Below, piece by piece: positions 51,473 through 62,751 of a DNA stretch of 64,000 nucleotides. This DNA comes from Perna viridis (Eukaryota), in NCBI GenBank assembly GCA_037379345.1, contig CM074511.1, positions 62,812,862 to 62,876,861 on the forward strand. The letters run 5' to 3'. The stretch's first letter is position 1. Each line of letters opens with the position of its first letter. The translations under genes and the position numbers were made by a program. Under the pieces are notes generated by a model that saw only the letters and a program-made list of their open reading frames with translations, was not told the origin of the DNA and made no database searches.

Positions 51473-51693
51473 CCCAAATATTTTATGCAATTTGATCAAT
51501 TGTATTCCTATATCCTATAGCTACTTTAAGGTTGACTTACATTAAAAGAACAAAAGTTTACTATTTACTGCGGTCTGCTATATGAAAATAGGATTTTGTC
51601 TGTCAGGTTGTACTTTTTATAGAGCCTTTAAGAGGTAAAGATATGTTGATGCAAAACAGCAGAATTTACAGAAACTATTATTACTTATAGGTT

Positions 51694-51815
51694 ATGTCGA
51701 TAAAATATATCTGGACTGGGAAAATCCTGATGTCGATAAAATATATCTGGACTGGGAAAATCAAATCCTGATGTCGATAAAATATATCTGGACTGGGAAA
51801 ATCAAATCCTGATGT
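51694..51815. repeat. 36-41-bp tandem repeat, 3 copies
   Basis: Unit ATGTCGATAAAATATATCTGGACTGGGAAAATC(AAATC)CTG. Confidence 0.9.
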
Positions 51816-52519: not shown

Positions 52520-53931
52520 GATTGATTTCATAGCTATGTTAAAGATAAGAAACAACAGGTAGTTATACAGACTTGGTCAGATCTTTGCAATACGTCGGAT
52601 GGAGTACCGCAAGGCTCAGTATTTTGACCCCTTTATTTATAAACAATATAAATGACATAGCAGATAGTCTATTTTCCCTTTGTGGAAGTTTTGCTGATGG
52701 TACATCTTTCGGCTACTCGAGCAACAATATAACAGAAGTAAAAATGTTATTGATCGCGATCTTTTATCGTTGGACAAATGGTCAAAAACGTGGTTAATGC
52801 ACTTTAACCCAAATAAAACAAAATTTATGATGTTTTCAAAAGTCGATATTCCAAATATAAATTTCAGTCTGAACGGAAAAGACATTCCGCTTAACAAAAC
52901 TCATAAACATTTAAGAGTTACTTTTAATGACGACGCAATGTGGAACGATCACATAGAAAATCCAGTTACCTAGATTAGAAAGCATATTCTTCGAAATTAA
53001 AAAAAATTAAACTTTCTTGGAATCACTTAAAAAACTATTCAAAGTGTATATCCGCTCTTTATTTGGATATGCTTCGGAAATCTCTGTGATAGTAAACACC
53101 CAAAAGCTGGTAACTTTACACCTCGAAGCTGCTAGAATAATAACTGGCTAACCGATATTCAACAAATCGGAGCAAGTATATAGCGAAATTGGATGGGGCA
53201 AAAACTAGAAGATCGACAAAAACGTAAGAAATTTATTTCATAAAAAATATGATAAAATGGCTCCGGATTATTTACACGACGATTCAATCTACTACAGTAT
53301 ATCCGCTTCGGAATGGTGAAGATATAATTGTTCCTTTTTTTTGTCGGTTGTCGATGATTCGTGATTTTTTTCATCAACAATAATCGAGTGGAATAGATTA
53401 GACAGAACATTGAGAGAGATTCAGGCACAAAAAAATTATTGTGTTTACTGACCGCAAATGATAAATTAACTGTTCCCTAAACATTGTTGTTACAGCCCAA
53501 AAAATTTAAATATATTGATAACTCAACTTCGTAATTCTTCATCCTTTGTAAAATTTGATTTTTATAGAGTCAATATTATACAAAGTCCGTCGTGTCATTA
53601 TGGTCATACATACGAGACTGCTCAGCATTACTTTTTTGTATGCCCTTTTTATAACAATTCAAGAACCAAACTAATGAGCGACCTACAGTGGGTTCTTGAA
53701 TTTTGCAATATAGATCTACATCTACTTGTTGGTCTTGCAGAAAATCTATCAGAAAAACAATATCAGGTTGTGCTGGACCGTGTATATTCCTTCGTTAAAT
53801 GCACTAAAAGATTCCTTATTGCTTGAGCTAAGTTAGTGCATATTACATCACATCACATCTCACCACATTACCTTATGTCATATTTTTATTGTCTCGTTTT
53901 AACTTTGTAAAACATAACACTATTGAATTTG
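52520..53931 (+). mobile_element. 5'-truncated decayed CR1-group LINE, left part (interrupted by the Polinton)
   Basis: GVPQGSV, NINDIAD...FADGT, WSKTWLMHFNPNKTK, HKHLRVTF, and C-terminal ITQLRNSSS...ETAQHYFFVCPFY. ORF ends at 53826. Confidence 0.85.
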
Positions 53932-54062
53932 AGTAGTGTCAAAAGGTCGATTCTACCCCACATGCAGAAATGCTGCATAAAACCCCCAACCCCGACGGCC
54001 AAATGCAAACAGACAGCATCCCTATTGAGCATAGGGTAAATACAAGAATTATGGCTTTCGTA
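53932..54062 (+). repeat. Polinton left terminal inverted repeat
   Basis: Matches the reverse complement of 62615-62745 with 10 mismatches in 131 bp (counted by eye). Confidence 0.95.
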
Positions 54063-57000
54063 CAGAGCACAAGTCAGGTCGCTCCAGCTGAGGATAGTGG
54101 GGATGTGGATAAGGACACCTTAAAGAAAGGTGTGCCAGAGATTGAAATAAATAAAGGGATGACATCCAATAGTGATAATATGAATCGCTACCAGGATTTC
54201 TTTCTGGAGAATGAAGAAGATTTGGAGGATACCACTCCAACCCCAAACCCCCAAAGGCAGCGGGAGTGCTGCGATAAACCCAACGTGATCGAGGTGTATG
54301 AGCATATCCAGCAGTGCCAAAATTGCGGTGCACAATGAACCAAGCCGCGATTTGAGTACCAACAAGGGGAGCAGAAGACCACATGCGGCGTCCCACTCGA
54401 GAGAAAGAAGGGGCAATTCTGCAAGAGCAAGCCCGGGAAGGATGGTCTTTGCTGGAGGCATAGCAAGGAACCACGCCAGCAGGAGGAGGAGGAGGAGGAG
54501 GTCATTCCAATCGTAGGTAAGATCGTGGTCAAAGAGACCACGAAGGCACTCCGTAAAATAGCTAAGGAAGAGGGTCTGAGGCTCAAGAGAGGAGATCTAC
54601 TCCAGCAGGTGGAAGAGAGCATCAGAAGCGCCTCAGTCGAAGATGAGATTAAGATCACCGAATGGTGTATTTGGCACGGTCATCATCGAACCTTTGAAGC
54701 CGCATGACGTAGCTACGTTTCTCAAGCTAAGTCGAAGCACGATCTCCACCCCATCTCAGATGCTCTCGCCCAAAAGAAGGGATTGAAGGTCCACTTAGTG
54801 TTCCTAGTGGACATGGTGAAAACGAGCCCCACGACCAAAGAGAATATCTACATCACCACTCCCTTCAGATCACGCACGACACTGCTCATGGAATCTGACG
54901 ACCTCGACTTGGAGATCGCCTCCATGATGGAGAAGATCAAGGAGAGTATGGCTAGTTATATGCGCGAAGGGAGTGGATGGACTTTCAGCAGCGTCGATAA
55001 GCTAGAAATCCATCTGAACCAATTCAAGCCGCTCAAGGGGAGTTCCTTCATACCGACGCCATCGGCACTCGCGAAAAAGAAGGCGATCGTCAATATGAAG
55101 AATGAGGACGATGCTGCTTCCAGTGGGCGATTCTCTCAGCCCTGCATCTCGACGAGGTGGATCAGAAGCATACCAACCGGGTGAGCCAATACGCGAAATG
55201 GGAGAACGAGCTAAAATTCGAAGGCATCGACTTCCCGGTCTCCCTCAAAGCGATCGATAAATTCGAGAGGCAAAATGCCTCTATCAACGTCTTTGGCTTC
55301 GATGGCATTAAGAAGGGTGAGGATGAGGAAGAGGATCTTCAGGTTTATCCCCTCAGAATATCCAAGGGTACAGGCCCCACCCAAGTAGATATCCTCTTCT
55401 TGACTCGCGAAGGTAAGCAGATTATTGCTGGATCAAGAGCCTCTCTCGACTCCTGAGCTCTCAAATCTCAGAGCACGGCCATGAGCTCTTCTTTTGCCGC
55501 AGATGCCTCTGCCAATTCTGCAGGCAAGATATGCTGGACGAGCATACTGAATATCTGCAGGGAGAAGAAGCCGATGGTGATGAGCAACGAGGATAAGAAG
55601 AGCTTCGAAGCAAGCACGCACTGCCACATCTGCGGCGGCGCATTGAATGGGGATAAGGTCCGGAACCACGACCACCTCACCGATAAGTATCGGGGCGCGA
55701 CACACAACCAGTGCAACCTAGATTTTCAGCTTCCGAAGCACGTGCCCATCATACTCCATCATATCTGAGTGGGTACGATGCCCATCTTTTCGTGAAGGAA
55801 TTCGACGGGGGAAAGATCACCTGCATCCCGAATACGGATGAGAAATATATCAGCTTCTCGAAGCAACTAGACGATGGCCTGGAGATGAGATTCATCGATT
55901 CGTGCAGATTCATGCTCAGCTCCCTCGAAAATCAATTGATGAATCTCACGCCCGATAAATTCAAGGCGGTTTGGGGATGCTCTGGCGATAAGTACGAGCT
56001 AATAATTAGGAAGGGGGTCTATCCCTACGATTACGCCGATGGGCCTGCCAAGCTGGAGGAGACTCAGCTCCCACCCAAGGAGACCTTCTTCAGCACGCTT
56101 ACCGGTGAGCACATCAACGACGAGGACTATGCACATGCTCAGGGAGTCTGGTGGCCTTCGACTACTAGACGCTGCGGGACTATCACAATCTCTGCCTGGA
56201 ATCCGACGTAGCCATACTGGTGGATGTCTTCGAAGACTTCAGGGACATCTGCATGGGAAAATTATGGGCTCGATCCTGCCCACCACTTCACGCCCCCGGG
56301 CTAGCCTATGACGCAGCCCTCAAAACCACCGGGGTCAGATTGGAGCTGCTCTCCGATCCGGACATGCTGCTGATGATCGAGAGGGCAACCAGAGGGGGCG
56401 TCGCCAGGATCTCCCACCGCCACGCCAAGGCCAACAATCCCTACATGGCCGACTACGATCACTCCCAACCCACCAAATATCTCACATACCTCGACGCTAA
56501 TAACCTCTACGGTTGGGCGATGGCACAGCCACGGGAGACTTCGAGTGGATGGAGCCGGAGGAGATCGAGAAGGTCTTTGAGTATATATCCCGACGATCAC
56601 GAGTACGGAGCCATGGTGAAATGCGATCTGGAATATCCGCAAGATCTTCACGACGCCCACGACTACCCTGTTGTGCCGGAAAACGTGGAAAATGACAAGG
56701 TGCGCAAGCTCGTGCCTCATCTAGGCAAGCGCGAAAAATATGCCCTCCACTATCGAAATCTCAAGCTCCACTTATCGATGGACATGAAGCTCGTCAAAGT
56801 CCATCGCATCATAGGGTTCAGGCAATCCCCCTGGCTCAAGTCGTATATCGAGCTGAATACGAAGCTTCGAGCCGCAGCCAAGACCGACTCCTAGAAGGAA
56901 TTTTTCAAGCTCATGAATAATTCGGTCTTCGGCAAAACGATGGAAAATATTTGGAAGCGCGTCGACGTCAGACCAGTCACCACCGCGAAGCAGGCCCTGA

Positions 57001-57668
57001 AGCTCGTGGCCAAACCCAACTTCGATCGCCGCGTCGTCTTCACCGAGAATTTGGCAGCCGTCCATATGAAAAAGACCAAGCTGAAGTTCGATAAGCCCGT
57101 CTACGGAGGAGCATGCATCTTGGATATCTCGAAGCTCCTGATGTACGACTTCCACTACGGATTCGTGAGGAAGACGTACGGCGATAAGGCCCGACTGCTT
57201 TTTACCGACACAGACAGCTTGGCCTACGAAATTCAGACCGTCGACTTCTACAAAAACATCGCGCCACACGTCCAGGAAAAATTCGATACGTCCAACTACC
57301 CCACCGGCGTGAATAAGAAGATCATCGGGATGTTCAGGGACGAGTGCGGCGGCAAGAACATGACCGAATTCGTAGGGCTACGGGCGAAGCTATACGCCTT
57401 CAAGTTAGGGGATGACGAGACCACCACGAAGGCGAATGGAGTCACCAAGAGCGTCATCAAGCGCAGCATCGCCTTCGAGGACTACAAGCGATGCCTCGAC
57501 ACCCAGCAGGAGATTCACCGTCCGATGAATATCATCCGGATCCATCCCCATCAGATCTACACGGAGATCAACAAGATCGCTCTGTCCGCCAAAGATGACA
57601 AGCGCCACATCCTCCCGGACGGCATCAGCACTCTCACCCACGGACACTATCGAATCGCCCGCGACTGA
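54051..57668 (+). pseudogene. polB: Protein-primed family B DNA polymerase (with terminal-protein region and endonuclease VII-like insert), frameshifted
   Basis: EGSGWTF...PLKGSSFIPTP...KKAIVNMKNED, CHICG...VRNHDHLT...YRGATHNQCN, SGYDAHL, RFIDSCRF, RKGVYPYDY, YLDANNLYGWAM, FFKLMNNSVFGKTMEN, LFTDTDSL, EFVGLRAKLY, ALSAKDDKR. Several stops and frameshifts; the true start may be 54051, 54159 or 54180. Confidence 0.95.
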
Positions 57669-57723
57669 CGTCCCCCACCACCCCTCTGCACTTAGCAGGT
57701 TCTGACGGATGCGGATGCCCATA

Positions 57724-58084
57724 CTGTGGAGTAGAGATCGACGTTGTGCTTCCGCAGCATATCCTTCATCTCGCGATTATAAAATTCCGTCCCCTTATCG
57801 GTCCATAGCTTTTTGGGGGTGCGATCCTTGAAGACGGTCCGGAAGGCATCTCGCACCGTGGCACCTTTCTTTTCCTTGAGCGGCACCAGCCAGCCGTACT
57901 TGGAAAAGACGTCGATTATGCTCAAGAGGTACTAGTATTTGAAGCCTCGGTTATCGCAGGAGAAGGCGCTAATATCCACGAGATCGGCAGCTCAGATCTC
58001 GTCCACCCCACCTACCACCACGCGACGCTTCTGGAATTTGCGTCGGATTGGCTTATGCAGCTCTTCGGCTAGTTCATCCGACCA
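57724..58084 (-). pseudogene. Retroviral-like (rve/DDE) integrase, N-terminal half
   Basis: WSDELAEELHKPIRRKFQKRRVVVGGVDEI(*=W)AADLVD...IIDVFSKYGWLVPLKEKKG...PKKLWTDKGTEFYN...VDLYST. Two in-frame stops; truncated before the catalytic Glu. Confidence 0.93.
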
Positions 58085-58520
58085 TACATTTTCCCCCAAA
58101 CCCAGCCCAAATCGCGCTTTAGTGCCGATGATGGGTTTGACGATGCTACGCTCGAAGCGCTCACGTGCGGTGGGGATGGCATCGAGGGAGGCTAGCATCG
58201 TCTTATCGCAGATCGAATTGCGTGCGGCCGTATCCTTGTGCTTGGCATAACAAAGATCGTGGCGATAGGCGACCTCATCGACTCGATTGATGGGCCTCGA
58301 CCAAGGTTTGGGGGTGCCGTCGGCATCGAGTCGCTGGCTGAGTCTGGTCCCCGGACCGGTGAAATTATGCCCAGATAGATGCATTTCGACGGGCATCCGA
58401 TTGATCAGCTTATTCATGAGTCCAGCGCCCTCCTCCGTCTTGATGAATTGCGACTTCAGCGTACCGCACCCGGCGCAGGTCCCCACCTTCTGCCGCCGCC
58501 GTCCGTCATTGCTCGTGATC
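58085..58520 (-). CDS. Parvovirus-type phospholipase A2 domain with upstream CxxCG zinc-ribbon half, in frame with the integrase
   Basis: HLSGHNFTGPGT (Ca-binding loop), PINRVDEVAYRHDLCY (HDxxY catalytic motif), ICDKTML; preceded by CAGCGTLKSQF. The 5' end appears truncated. Confidence 0.88.
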
Positions 58521-58522
58521 AA

Positions 58523-58720
58523 ATGGACGTTGAAGATCTTACCTATGATGAGCCCACCGCGAGTCCTCGGCATAACCACTTTCTCCTCCCACAGCGATCC
58601 ACCCGTGGTCTGCCATCGGGAAATCGGACTGCGGCAAGACTACGCTGCTGAATAACCTCCTCACCATTCCTGACCATCGATCTCACAAGCCCCAAGACGG
58701 CAGGGAAATATCTATGCAAC
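58523..58720 (+). pseudogene. Packaging ATPase (A32/FtsK-like) remnant: N- and C-termini joined
   Basis: MDVEDLTY...PRHNHFLLPQRSTRGL, then a frameshift to IGKSDCGKTTLLNNLL (Walker A; G at 58618), followed almost at once by TIDLTSPKTAGKY, which resembles the ATPase C-terminus. Confidence 0.75.
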
Positions 58721-58837
58721 CACCGTGCTGCATCGAGACCGTACGTGGCCATTAGTGCACGTACCCATCCATATCGGGCAGTGATAAATGTAAGAAGCAC
58801 TCGAAGCTTTTCCCCGAGGCATGCTATCGGTGTGGTG

Positions 58838-58984
58838 ACGCTAAGGGGCGATCGATCCAACGCTTAGGGGCGATCAATCCAACGCTTAGGGGCGATCAAT
58901 CCAACGCTTAGAAGCGTTCGTTCCAACGCTTGGGGGCGATCAATCCAACGCTTGGGGGCGTTCGATTCAACGCTTAGGGGCGAT
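58838..58984. repeat. 22-bp tandem repeat inside the Polinton, ~6.7 copies
   Basis: Unit ACGCTTAGGGGCGATCAATCCA with variants. Confidence 0.95.
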
Positions 58985-59001
58985 GGCGAAGCTATAAATA
59001 A

Positions 59002-59623
59002 ATGACGTTTATCAAGATCACCGATCCCAAGCAATGTGAAGCGCTTGCTCACTACCCATCGAGCAAGCGATGATGAGCACCAGCCTCGGCCCGCGACGCA
59101 CTATCTCCAGCTCAGTATGACTTCCAAGGCCGATCATGCCTTTGGATTGCGAGTGGACGACGATTCCATCATAATCGGAAGTCTGCCCGTCACTTTTGAT
59201 GGAGACGATATTTTCGTCGATTGTAAGCGCTATAAGTGTACCCCTGGCCTATGGGAACTCATGGTGCTGAAGCATCCCAAAGATTTCGACGTGGTAGACC
59301 TGAATACCTATGGCGATATCATACGAGCATCGGGGGCCATGTATTCCATCCTCTCTCGCACTCCAAAGTCCAATCGAAGCCGCAAATGGAAGGAGATTGT
59401 ATCCCACTTTTATAAGCAAGATAAGTATGGCAGCGGGATGCCGACCGTCTTCCTCCCCACGTGCTTCGACCAGCTGCTGGGTCGTCTCGATTTTTGCGCT
59501 GCCGCATACCAGGCTGGAAATAATGGGGTGCGCAACGAAATCGTGGCCATACTCGACGCCATGAGGAAGTCCGGTCATATCAGCAGGGAGGAGTACGAGA
59601 AGCTGCATCGAAGGCTCCTCTAG
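59002..59623 (+). pseudogene. Conserved Polinton/adintovirus hypothetical protein, 5' part disrupted
   Basis: Starts MTFIKITDPK after TATAAATAAATG, then a frame break. Motifs DHAFGL, YKCTPGLWELM, KWKEIV, FLP...RLD...AGNNGVRNEIVAILD are recalled from Polinton accessory proteins. Confidence 0.65.
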
Positions 59624-59634
59624 ATAAATTAACG

Positions 59635-59968
59635 ATGCCTTTAGTATTGAATCACGGTTATCGCCGAAGGTATGCCGTCGGCGGGCGAGGACTATTCGAT
59701 GCCATCACCAATCTAGCAGGACGCGTGCTTACCTCTTCCGCCGTCAAGACGTTGGGTAGTAAGGCCGTGAGCGCTGCTTCCAATGCAGCCCTGAAAGGCG
59801 TGGAGAAAGTTGCGGCTAAGGCCGTGGACCACGTCGTCCATCGAGTGACTCGTAAGAAAAATCCTCCCCCAAGACCAAGAGGACCTCGCAGCAGCAGGCC
59901 CGTCTCAATGATCTCATCTCTGGCGGGGGCATCGCCACCATCCACGACTTCGCTCGGCGCTATAAATA
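59635..59968 (+). CDS. Small basic Ala/Lys-rich amphipathic virion protein (cupiennin-like / adenovirus pVI- or pVII-like candidate); 3' end uncertain
   Basis: YRRRYAVGGRG|LFDAITNLAGRVLTSSAVKTLGSKAVSAASNAALKGVEKVAAKAVDHVV; lies directly upstream of the MCP. Confidence 0.6.
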
Positions 59969-59977
59969 AAATATATA

Positions 59978-61262
59978 ATGGCCGATATGCTTTCTATCAC
60001 CGAAGGACTGACTTTCGATGAAAGTCTCCAGGAGTATCAGGTTCACGAATACGAACCTCAAGCCGGGGCGCAGCTGAATAATGCCGGCGCAGAGATACGC
60101 ATCAATATCGAGAGCCAAGATCTCTTCCTCCACCCCGCCGAAAGCTATCTCTTGATTGAAGGCCGACTTCAGAAGAATGATGGCTCTGCGTATGGCAACA
60201 GCGATCTGGTATCGCTCGTCCATAACGGTGCTATGTATCTCTTTCGTAGCATCAGCTACCGACTCTCCGGCCAGCAGATCGAGCACCTCAACGACCCCGG
60301 CATCGCCACCACCATGCTAGGAATGCTGACGTACCCCGACGACTTCTCCAAATCGCAAGGCCTCAACCAACTATTGTTCAAAGACTCCACGACCAATGCT
60401 GAGGCAGAAAACGTTGGATTTGCAGGACGTCACGGGTATATCATCACCAAGCCAACCAATAAGGGATCCTTTTCTTTCTCCATCCCACTGAAGCACGTCT
60501 TTGGCTTTGCCGAGGACTACGATGAGATCGTCTACGGATTCAAGCACGAGCTTTCCATGGTGCGTGATTCGGATGCTAATGCCATTCTCCGTGCTGCCGC
60601 CGTCAACGACGTGGCCAAAGTAGTATTGAGTAAGGTTTCCTGGTTCGTCTCCCGAGTCATTCCCTCTGACGAAAAAAAGCTGCGCCTCTATAAGACCATC
60701 CAGAGCAAGGCCAAGATCGATTGCGGATTTCGCATGAGGCAGTGCGACTCCATCACCGTGCCGCAGACTTCACAATTTCACTGGCGTCTAGCCGCTAAAA
60801 GCGGGCGAGAAAAACCGCGATGGATCATCGTCACCTTTCCGACCGAACGGAATAATGACCAGCTGCATAATGCCGCTGTCTTCGACCACTGCCGATTGCG
60901 AAATATCCACGTGACCCTCAATGTGGAGCGCTATCCCGCCGTTGAATTCAATGCCGGCTTCACCCAATGCAGTGTCGCTAGGCTCTACAGGGAGGCTTCC
61001 GAATTCTGCAAGAAATTCTATAGCATGGAAAGTCTGCTGAGCAATGGCGGCATCAATCCCTCCGACTTCATCGATCTCTATCCCCTATTCGTCATCGACG
61101 TGAGCCATGTCCGAGCGGTTGAAAGAGTCGAGGGTGGATATCCAGATCCGAGCCGATTTCGAGCGCAACGTTCCTGCCAATACCCAAGCCGTCGCCCTGG
61201 TCATCTCCGATCGAATCCTCCAATTCGAATCCGACGGCCAGACGATGAGCGTCGTCTTCTGA
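59978..61262 (+). pseudogene. Major capsid protein (double jelly-roll, hexon-like) with one frameshift near 61110
   Basis: DESLQEYQVHEYEP...IRINIESQDLFLHPAESYLLIEGRL...FSFSIPLKHVFGFAEDYDEIVYGFKHELSMVR...EKPRWIIV...FDH...ERYP...YPLFVIDVS. The C-terminus continues in another frame as ERLKESRVDIQIRADF...ISDRILQFESDGQTMSVVF* (TGA 61260-61262). Confidence 0.9.
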
Positions 61263-61271
61263 GGAGGGTAA

Positions 61272-62018
61272 ATGGACGCTTCACTTTTGCGGAAAATCGC
61301 CACCAATACCGAGCCCAAACACGGGTTCTCCTTCATCGTCTCTGGGAACGATAGCCAGATCTTGACCTGCTTCAACCCACCCATCCAACTGCGCGAGGAG
61401 AAAGCTTACGAGATGGCCCTCGTGAATCTGGAGACGTACTACTCCATCCCCAATATTCATGTAGCTAATAATTCCTTCCTTCCGCTACTCTCCCGATGAT
61501 GTCGCACTGAGCACCGGCTCTTATGGCATCGACGATATCAATGATAAGATCCAGCGGCAACTGCGGCTCCATAAGCACAAGGCTAAGATCCTTCTCGATG
61601 CCAATCGCGCGACTCTGTGAGCAACCCTCACCCACGCCAGTAATTATCAAGTGGATTTCGACGTGCCCAATAGCCTAAATACGGTGCTTGGATTCGAGCG
61701 CCGGACGTATACCTACGACCGAAGCACCAACGGCTACGCGGAGGGTGAGCGCATCGCCAATATCATCAGCATCAATAGCATCCTCGTGAATAGCGATATC
61801 ATTCACGGAAGCTACGTGGACGGCACCCAGCAGTCCACCATCTATAGCTTCTTTCCCGCGGTCGATCCGGGCATGAAAATCATCCAGACCCCCAAGAATC
61901 TGGTCTAACCCTGAGGACCATCGACCGCATGCAGACGTATCTGACCGATCAGGACGGTCGCCCCATCGATATGCGAGGGGAGCATCTCACCATCCGCTTT
62001 CATCTGCGTGAGGTATAA
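61272..62018 (+). pseudogene. Minor capsid protein (penton), frameshifted
   Basis: FNPPIQL...YEMALVNLETYYSIPNI...NNSF; GSYGIDDIN; NSLNTVLGF; NIISINSILVNSDIIHGSYVDG...IYSFFPAVDPGMKIIQTPKNLV; LTDQDGRPIDMRGEHLTIRFHLREV*. Confidence 0.88.
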
Positions 62019-62022
62019 ATGA

Positions 62023-62124
62023 ATGGATTATCAAGAGTACGGTCTGAACTTGACGAAAGGTCAAGCGGAAAAAATCCAGCATGCGGCAAAGAAGGGATGT
62101 CCCATCTTGGGCATGCTCCTCTAG
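62023..62124 (+). pseudogene. Collapsed remnant of a conserved Polinton accessory gene
   Basis: MDYQEYGLNLTKGQAEKIQHAAKKGCP joined to ILGMLL*; resembles the N- and C-terminal motifs of a normally longer adintovirus protein (recall). Confidence 0.5.
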
Positions 62125-62134
62125 GTATAAATAA

Positions 62135-62478
62135 ATGGACTCGTAGACTCTAGGAAGCAATCCTACAGGCAAGCTAGGATCAAATCGACCGAGCGAGAGC
62201 TCAAATCCGAAATGCACAAGTACAACTGACTGTCGAGGATCTATAAGCGAGTGGACAAAGTGGTGTCTTTTGCTCTAGATACATGTGCCGTGCTCAATGT
62301 CATTTGCACCACCGGTACACTCAGCACTGCCACAACAGGGATAGGTGCCCTGGCATGTATTCCCTTGAGCTCACTAGCCATCCTGAATTCGATCGGAATG
62401 GTGGTATTGACGGTCCTATCCAAACGCATCCGCAAGAAACGCATGAAGCATGAAGACACCGTGCGTATCGTCAAAACC
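62135..62478 (+). pseudogene. Coiled-coil plus two-hydrophobic-helix protein (adintovirus gasderminX-like), 3' truncated
   Basis: YRQARIKSTERELKSE...IYKRVDKVV...ATTGIGALACIPLSSLAILNSIGMVVLTVLSKRIRKKRMKHEDTV; start follows TATAAATAAATG. Confidence 0.55.
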
Positions 62479-62626
62479 TACCGTCCACCTCTATCACCTC
62501 CATGATCTTGTAGATTACCCCGATGGGTAGGTCCTTCCATTTCTGAGCTTCCTGACTCTGCTCCTCGACCTTTTCCTGGAAGAAATCTTCACTGATGAAG
62601 TCTTCTCCGATAGATACGAAAGCCAT
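62471..62626 (-). CDS. Small acidic ORF starting inside the right TIR (51 aa; possibly a truncated OB-fold/ssDNA-binding protein)
   Basis: MAFVSIGEDFISEDFFQEKVEEQSQEAQKWKDLPIGVIYKIMEVIEVDGRF*; too short for the supplied ORF track. The function is inference. Confidence 0.55.
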   Translation of the reverse strand: MAFVSIGEDFISEDFFQEKVEEQSQEAQKWKDLPIGVIYKIMEVIEVDGRF

Positions 62627-62745
62627 AATTCTTGTATTTACCCTATGCTCAATAAGAATGCCATCCCTTTACATCTGGCCGTCGGGGTTGGGGGTTTTAT
62701 GCAGGATTTCTGCATGTGGGGTAGAATCGGCCTTTTGACACTACT
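62615..62745 (-). repeat. Polinton right terminal inverted repeat
   Basis: Reverse complement of 53932-54062. Confidence 0.95.
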
Positions 62746-62751
62746 AATTTG

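Follow-up and report, generated by a model that had tools for sequence, protein, structure and literature searches.

A putative Gag-Pol-like link between a zinc ribbon-PLA2 protein and the integrase of Polintons

How a Polinton integrase is delivered to the incoming genome is the question raised by a locus in Perna viridis, where a PLA2 domain runs into an integrase within one reading frame. We analysed the whole 64,000-nt stretch around it (the window) together with relatives of the element it contains. The reading that we favour, with modest confidence, is a Gag-Pol-like one, in which a -1 slip would yield a minor fusion of a core protein to the integrase, to be packaged and cut by the viral protease.

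A dead Polinton copy with a PLA2-integrase read-through

The element in the window is a deleted, dead Polinton (adintovirus) copy. It shows the Polinton hallmark of terminal inverted repeat arms (131 nt) with identical 6-bp flanks, and comprises the following features, in which L numbers denote loci of relatives.

53932..62745: Polinton/Maverick (adintovirus) copy, internally deleted, 8.8 kb; GC content about 52%, that of the flanks being 33%
53932..54062, plus strand: left terminal inverted repeat with AGTAGT end; 6-bp target-site duplication at 53926-53931
54711..57668, plus strand: protein-primed PolB, broken (tblastn with the L001 PolB, E down to 2e-162)
57725..58084, minus strand: integrase N-terminus and partial rve core, broken by stops; Asp codons at 57985 and 57799
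58085..58108, minus strand: PLA2-integrase junction, with G-x-G (58100-58108) and a short in-frame linker
58100..58420, minus strand: parvovirus-type PLA2 domain (PF08398; invariant columns), NFTGPG from 58366, HDLCY from 58261, downstream Asp at 58207
58421..58429, minus strand: zinc ribbon/PLA2 G-x-G site
58430..58521, minus strand: DUF5679 zinc ribbon remnant, second CxxC only (58466-58477)
58524..58662, plus strand: packaging ATPase 5′ remnant, head to head with the PLA2 gene (blastn to L026 and translation; family named by comparison)
59002..59623, plus strand: '59002 protein', a conserved ORF, broken; G-x-G at 59429-59437
59635..60021, plus strand: cupiennin-like ORF, with a short N-peptide, G-x-G at 59683-59691 and then a probable amphipathic helix
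59978..61259, plus strand: double jelly-roll MCP (major capsid protein; PF21738, E 5e-43)
61272..62015, plus strand: penton/minor capsid protein, broken (homology to relatives)
62615..62745, minus strand: right-hand arm of the terminal inverted repeat (131 nt; 92% complementarity), followed by the target-site duplication at 62746-62751

The name penton/minor capsid protein for 61272..62015 is our assumption, the homology itself being shown. The PF08102 match of the cupiennin-like ORF is weak and below the cut-off. An adenain/Ulp1-like protease gene was found in relatives of the window copy; tblastn with the protease ORFs of L001, L056 and L089 gave zero matches in the window copy itself.

Upstream of the 59002 ORF lies a 22-bp tandem array (58838-58984; 6.7 copies, 85% matches). 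TATAAAT-AAATG-like motifs stand directly 5′ of several element genes (58990, 62011 and 62123, with 59964 seen by eye), and a similar motif separates the head-to-head ATPase and PLA2 genes of L026. Judged by eye, seemingly just the two ends of a PZ/GasderminX-like gene are kept, near 62022-62126, and the left flank at about 52800-53830 resembles a decayed LINE ORF2 end. The host flank also carries a 41-nt repeat in three copies (51686-51803).

The first-pass annotation, which started from the letters of the window, had PLA2 passing into the integrase N-terminus without a stop or a new Met. This is correct: the minus-strand frame runs for 193 codons from 58573 to 57995, and the join reads as quoted there. 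Within this ORF, PLA2 matches PF08398 above the cut-off (residues 63-131, E 4e-7) and retains the HD, the Tyr, the Asp and the GPG loop, and the rve core (PF00665, E 9e-9) continues in the PLA2 frame. The three other Gly motifs that had been pointed out, before PLA2, in the 59002 protein and in the 59635 protein, are present as well. The zinc ribbon assigned to the read-through survives in part: its second CxxC is there, while its start and first CxxC are gone, with 67 nt missing relative to L026, the closest DNA relative (89% identical), and a deletion point at 58521/58522. We rejected 58573 as the ORF start, since this Met derives from antisense ATPase sequence; the first 17 codons are spurious.

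The frame meets stops at codons 194 and 214 (57992-57994 and 57932-57934). The integrase ends at about 57725, ahead of the catalytic Glu, and the half with the Glu and the chromodomain is deleted. Siblings of the copy, seen through contigs and reads, are plentiful in host sequencing runs (977 and 206 contigs in two runs, on 1.8 kb of the element), and the first integrase stop is absent from them. RNA reads gave no usable signal of expression: on the window gene they numbered 15 and 36 (about a fifth and a quarter of two runs), none of them 99% alike. Zero reads covered 58093-58336, and the majority lay on the strand that usually means antisense to the PLA2-integrase gene; five reads from a diverged sibling cross the junction in frame.

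The junction itself is 10 nt shorter than that of L026 and lacks the run of 6-12 A found in relatives. Because the relatives of the window clade are mostly split and overlapping at this point, as described below, the in-frame join of the window is best read as a junction deletion in a decayed copy. Taken alone, the copy is a case of ordinary decay; it is a pointer to a putative expression strategy in its family.

Junction frames across the lineage

A search for long homologues yielded 78 proteins among 1,027 candidates. PLA2 and rve Pfam domains occur together in 72 of these 78, usually in the order DUF5679-PLA2-rve-chromo over 445-475 aa. The ESM Atlas contains three clusters with the fused architecture (111, 72 and 184 members) and one further rve cluster, with DUF5679 in 31% of its members. 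The long homologues and the three Atlas clusters bear out an earlier guess that PLA2-integrase fusions occur in related elements. Some in-frame fusions have a junction free of any A run (L081, the P0076 cluster and others), which means that the elements tolerate being fused; they lie mostly in two supported clades (99/99 and 100/94) of a tree made from 51 of 60 chosen rows, the remaining 9 being skipped where the anchor motif was absent. As the linkage is lineage-wide and includes these A-run-free clades, the fusion protein is a natural product and did not arise by a large deletion. An origin by large deletion joining distant genes was rejected on the same ground. At the level of sequence, zinc ribbon (DUF5679)-PLA2 and integrase-chromo are thus linked across the lineage in two forms, a single ORF or a -1 overlap.

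The modules are also shuffled. P0079 (25 members) is DUF5679-integrase-chromo without PLA2, and P0181, P0251 and P0275 have PLA2-GxG followed by an apparent DUF5679. In P0333 and P0339 (Mytilus galloprovincialis by source) internal deletions join PLA2 to the chromodomain; both are 78-79% identical to P0083, a close relative. Among the 50 matches listed from a viral fold search with the fusion model, integrases and a single entomopoxvirus PLA2 each stand on their own, and none is a PLA2-integrase fusion. For DUF5679, the best fold comparison was with the NrdR ribbon (Z 5.0, rmsd 2.3, 46 aligned); Cren7 scored Z 3.6 (rmsd 2.7, 45 aligned), and Foldseek gave zero matches at E<=0.001. A DUF5679 protein is reported for over 40% of coral elements in the available part of 10.1101/2023.10.06.561300.

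We read junction frames in 82 loci, namely the 80 top-ranked among 559 metagenome loci and two elements from IMG/VR, using frameshift-aware alignments to natural fused proteins; the ranking of the 80 favours in-frame joins, and many loci come from few datasets. The two IMG/VR loci were the informative ones in a search with alignments (23 weak PLA2-only matches were left out), and a search of IMG/VR with a single protein gave no matches. Ten of the 56 full-length loci are unbroken outside the junction: eight are net -1 (seven without L002, which is ambiguous as its shift lies downstream of the A run), one is +1 and one is in frame. Mutual identity among the seven clean -1 loci is 60-86%. Breaks elsewhere affect 42 of 43 in-frame full-length loci; among the -1 loci that are free of ambiguity they affect 3 of 10 (P 6e-6 by Fisher test, L002 left out; copies are not independent). 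Clean loci among the 26 partial ones comprise eight -1, one +1 and three in frame. Host siblings of the window copy show all three junction frames.

The usual intact state in the window clade is therefore a PLA2 stop a few codons past G-x-G and the A run, with the integrase overlapping in -1. A stop and an intergenic spacer in intact copies had been named as the finding that would make the fusion a deletion artefact. The stop is there in most intact copies of the window clade; in place of a spacer there is the -1 overlap. A single PLA2-integrase ORF is kept in some clades, with the window clade mostly split, and G-x-G is conserved in relatives at both linkers (zinc ribbon/PLA2 and PLA2/integrase). 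In one subfamily (L031, L088 and L093) PLA2 terminates ahead of the A run and an early Met is missing from the integrase frame, an arrangement for which a slip model does not account.

Protein data extend these counts, with frames inferred from tail residues rather than from DNA. The C-terminal tails of short ZnR-PLA2 homologues correspond to the beginning of the integrase translated in another frame: among the 120 listed of 579 matches, 76 tails are -1, 18 are +1, 6 are in frame and 20 gave no call. For 146 sampled members of ten clusters the corresponding numbers are 106, 6, 1 and 33. The clusters headed by -1 tails comprise 5,896 members, the 77 fused clusters 1,105. The junction is spanned in frame by 28 of the 60 listed members of the four largest fused clusters, and the cluster nearest the window (11 members, read by hand) has seven -1 and three +1 tails.

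Could all of these elements make one constitutive polyprotein, the -1 and +1 copies reflecting decay of a homopolymer, or errors in its sequencing, within a poly-Lys linker? The in-frame fusions among long homologues and in the Atlas, and those free of A runs, agree with this, and A runs are established slippage hotspots. The ratio of -1 to +1 shifts at the junction in the DNA set, 15:2 for clean loci and 18:7 for all, compares with 55:31 elsewhere (P 0.08 and 0.63), and so the direction bias is not significantly above the background deletion bias. Against a constitutive polyprotein, clean window-clade copies run 7:1:1 for -1 although the ranking favours in-frame joins, -1 tails outnumber +1 tails by 106 to 6, and -1 clusters exceed fused ones about 5:1. 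Moreover, the -1 state is found repeatedly, at A runs between 6 and 10 long, and other A6 runs in the same genes are unshifted. We consider it improbable that the polyprotein is general; it probably holds for the A-run-free clades.

The first-pass annotation had envisaged a virion polyprotein carrying an entry enzyme and the integrase. Lineage-wide linkage and the conserved G-x-G sites sustain the association, and a constitutive single polyprotein in the window clade is not sustained. Given the stop after PLA2 in most intact copies of this clade, the constitutive polyprotein read in the window copy most likely stems from decay, while the fusion would probably be a minor, recoded product.

The A run and entry into the integrase frame

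Among 14 shifted clean loci, 13 have at least 7 consecutive A at the junction, compared with a single stretch of that length in the other 15,237 nt of these genes; the same is true of L001 and L026, whose Lys codons are mostly AAG. Ten clean -1 loci have enough sequence for the integrase start to be judged. In six of them (L074, L089, L097, L105, L066 and L068) the integrase frame has no Met ahead of the first catalytic Asp, and in four (L001, L056, L071 and L077) it has one. We take this Asp to be the first catalytic residue from the rve motif and from a foamy-virus alignment that begins just downstream of it. Over the 37 codons upstream of the first Met, pairwise differences in eight loci fall 131/132/481 by codon position, and these integrase codons ahead of the Asp are under protein-level selection. 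With no Met and such selection, the codons must be entered from upstream.

An alternative is that two separate proteins are made, the integrase being started independently through a non-AUG codon, reinitiation past the PLA2 stop, a separate transcript or splicing. In that case the A run would be a transcription signal and the in-frame fusions accidental. Intact copies do stop after PLA2, usable integrase-frame Met codons lie close to the junction in L001, L056 and L077, and TATAAA-like motifs precede other element genes. Alpha-adintovirus PLA2X and integrase are also described as separate genes in the passages at hand of Starrett 2021 (PMC8502044), which treat PLA2X as a gene of its own. However, six of the ten clean loci have no Met ahead of the catalytic Asp, and by eye the junction is A-rich with no pyrimidine tract. 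Independent starts would give no preference of -1 over +1, and intact clades with in-frame fusions exist. We regard separate expression as unlikely, and a -1 slip itself as quite probable.

Speaking against a classical ribosomal cassette, we found no stimulatory RNA structure over the 60 nt 3′ of the junction, the z value averaging 0.10 (n=12) and that of the control 0.07 (n=24), with pseudoknots outside the model. An XXXYYYZ heptamer is present in 9 of 12 -1 loci and in 11 of 14 in-frame loci, and therefore does not discriminate; none was seen by eye in the window copy. Neither test includes the odd L088, nor L075 and L091, which are duplicates. A bare A run would suit either sliding of the ribosome on poly(A) or a polymerase stutter that adds one A. 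Polymerase-stutter sites such as those of Ebola GP and potyvirus PIPO similarly combine a run of 6-8 or more A and no RNA structure with one added A that reaches a second frame. Those sites are used by viral RNA polymerases; no Polinton is known to encode one.

In the -1 slip model, a small virion-core protein with the layout zinc ribbon-[GxG]-PLA2-[GxG] would carry the integrase as an extension at its C-terminus. The default product of the window clade would be a ZnR-PLA2 protein of 160-180 aa, and a -1 slip at the A run just past the second GxG, whether ribosomal or a one-A transcription stutter, would extend a minority of molecules into integrase-chromo. In sister clades the fusion would have become fixed in frame.

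Retroviral and LTR-retrotransposon Gag-Pol has a structural ORF upstream, a -1 enzyme frame without its own start, an A-rich slip site and release by protease, and occurs in shifted and single-ORF variants. The relatives studied here are similar in that the enzyme frame overlaps the upstream ORF in -1 without its own start (in the six of ten clean -1 loci). They differ in belonging to a dsDNA virus, in having a zinc ribbon-PLA2 protein upstream instead of a capsid protein, and in encoding the protease as a separate gene; no stimulatory structure was found, and recoding is here inferred from sequence.

The nearest described systems are alpha-adintovirus PLA2X and the Sf Maverick 'CAP', a PLA2 whose ORF is separate from that of the integrase as far as the consulted text of PMC5803895 goes. 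They share with our elements a parvovirus-type PLA2 in the Polinton virion module and an rve integrase with a C-terminal chromodomain. Unlike them, the elements described here have an N-terminal DUF5679 ribbon on PLA2, an integrase joined in frame or by a -1 overlap, and Cupiennin- and GasderminX-like genes in the same element. For adintovirus Penton and Hexon-Adenain, -1 frameshifts have been proposed by KnotInFrame prediction (Buck 2024, PMC11071296). That proposal also concerns hidden virion-protein isoforms made by -1 slippage in the same virus group; its genes differ, and PLA2-integrase is absent from the passages seen.

We found no description of a PLA2-integrase fusion or frameshift in the literature covered, a scope outside which lie subscription papers, Repbase and bioRxiv supplements; the map graphics of PMC8502044 may show adjacency. 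The sections available of PMC3671162, 10.1101/341131, PMC13215967, PMC12567637, 10.64898/2026.06.19.733378, PMC11161782 and PMC10120064 contain nothing on a PLA2-integrase link. The comparison points to a previously undescribed, putative expression strategy in the family of the window copy, by which the integrase would be tied to a PLA2 core protein in a Gag-Pol-like manner.

G-x-G motifs and the fate of the fusion protein

G-x-G-hydrophobic motifs were counted in non-redundant ORFs from the 82 loci, with family names after Starrett 2021 by comparison and the ATPase outside the count. PLA2 ORFs contain 31 against 4.3 expected, in 19 of 19 sequences. Enrichment is also seen in the cupiennin-like (11/1.8 observed/expected), PZ/GasderminX-like (53/9.6), 59002 (6/1.9) and helical ORF (4/0.6) families. 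There is none in MCP (1/1.5), penton (0/1.9), protease (1/2.4), PolB (0/1.1, two sequences) or integrase (4/2.5). P values for the enrichment are inflated because homologous sites are inherited. The motif marks putative core proteins and hardly occurs in the capsid proteins, the polymerase or the protease. When a natural fusion is modelled (mean pLDDT 83.9), the two G-x-G sites fall within linkers with pLDDT<50 (residues 47-51 and 159-166).

The sites had been put forward as targets of adenain-type cleavage. The adenain consensus, (M/I/L)xGxG as quoted in the accessible text of 10.1101/341131, is matched by 0 of 219 G-x-G-hydrophobic sites (first 200 residues of 197 PLA2 homologues, many redundant), none having M/I/L at the required place. 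We therefore rejected them as adenain consensus sites. The Polinton protease belongs to the same Ulp1 family as adenain according to the part seen of PMC11161782, and cleavage at GxG by a protease of this family is, in our estimate, likely. The parallel with adenain-matured core proteins of adenoviruses and adomaviruses (10.1101/341131, in the portion available) is that of small core proteins with Gly motifs; unlike in those, the consensus is unmet and a hydrophobic residue follows G-x-G.

Linkage and slip could both be real with GxG serving as a flexible or helix-capping linker, the fusion remaining uncut, or acting unpackaged in the cell through chromatin or membrane targeting. The failure of the sites to match the adenain consensus would fit, Gly is common at domain ends, and GxG is enriched in the helical ORF family too. 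Set against this are the fixed places of the motif in four unrelated small protein families, with up to seven occurrences in the PZ-like one, and its near-absence from MCP, penton, PolB and protease. The adomavirus core protein LO6, moreover, is cleaved in virions (10.1101/341131, as far as the text consulted extends). We judge an uncut or unpackaged fusion very unlikely.

In the processing model that we prefer, the fusion would enter particles together with the core protein, which is the abundant product, and cuts in the GxG linkers by the Ulp1/adenain-like protease of the element would follow, freeing PLA2 for entry and the integrase for the incoming genome. PLA2 would aid membrane escape, by analogy with parvovirus VP1 (PMC8502044). 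We rate packaging of the fusion slightly above an even chance; no Maverick-Polinton virion has been observed so far, according to the part available of 10.64898/2026.06.19.733378.

Whether the scheme extends further is, in our view, evenly balanced. A conserved, structure-free -1 site in many animal Polintons would tie the integrase to ZnR/PLA2 and set the integrase dose per particle, and a G-x-G protease code common to all core proteins would free both enzymes. This would be an equivalent of Gag-Pol that arose in a dsDNA virus. If so, databases mis-call such integrases as N-truncated or frameshift-broken, and many copies now taken as decayed on account of a 'frameshift before the integrase' would really be intact, with an effect on counts of potentially active elements. 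Integration would be built into the particle, as in retroviruses, and the Polinton protease would gain a testable substrate motif.

Two of the small proteins have further Gly sites. The PZ/GasderminX-like protein (L001:4685-5353, L002:7665-8279, L056:684-1280 and L089:6151-6732) has G-x-G-hydrophobic sites in tandem, four to seven of them, and in this resembles a core precursor that is processed at several points. The layout of the 59635-60021 ORF, with its N-peptide, Gly site and probable amphipathic helix, is that of adenovirus protein VI, and relatives of this ORF have a second Gly site near the C-terminus.
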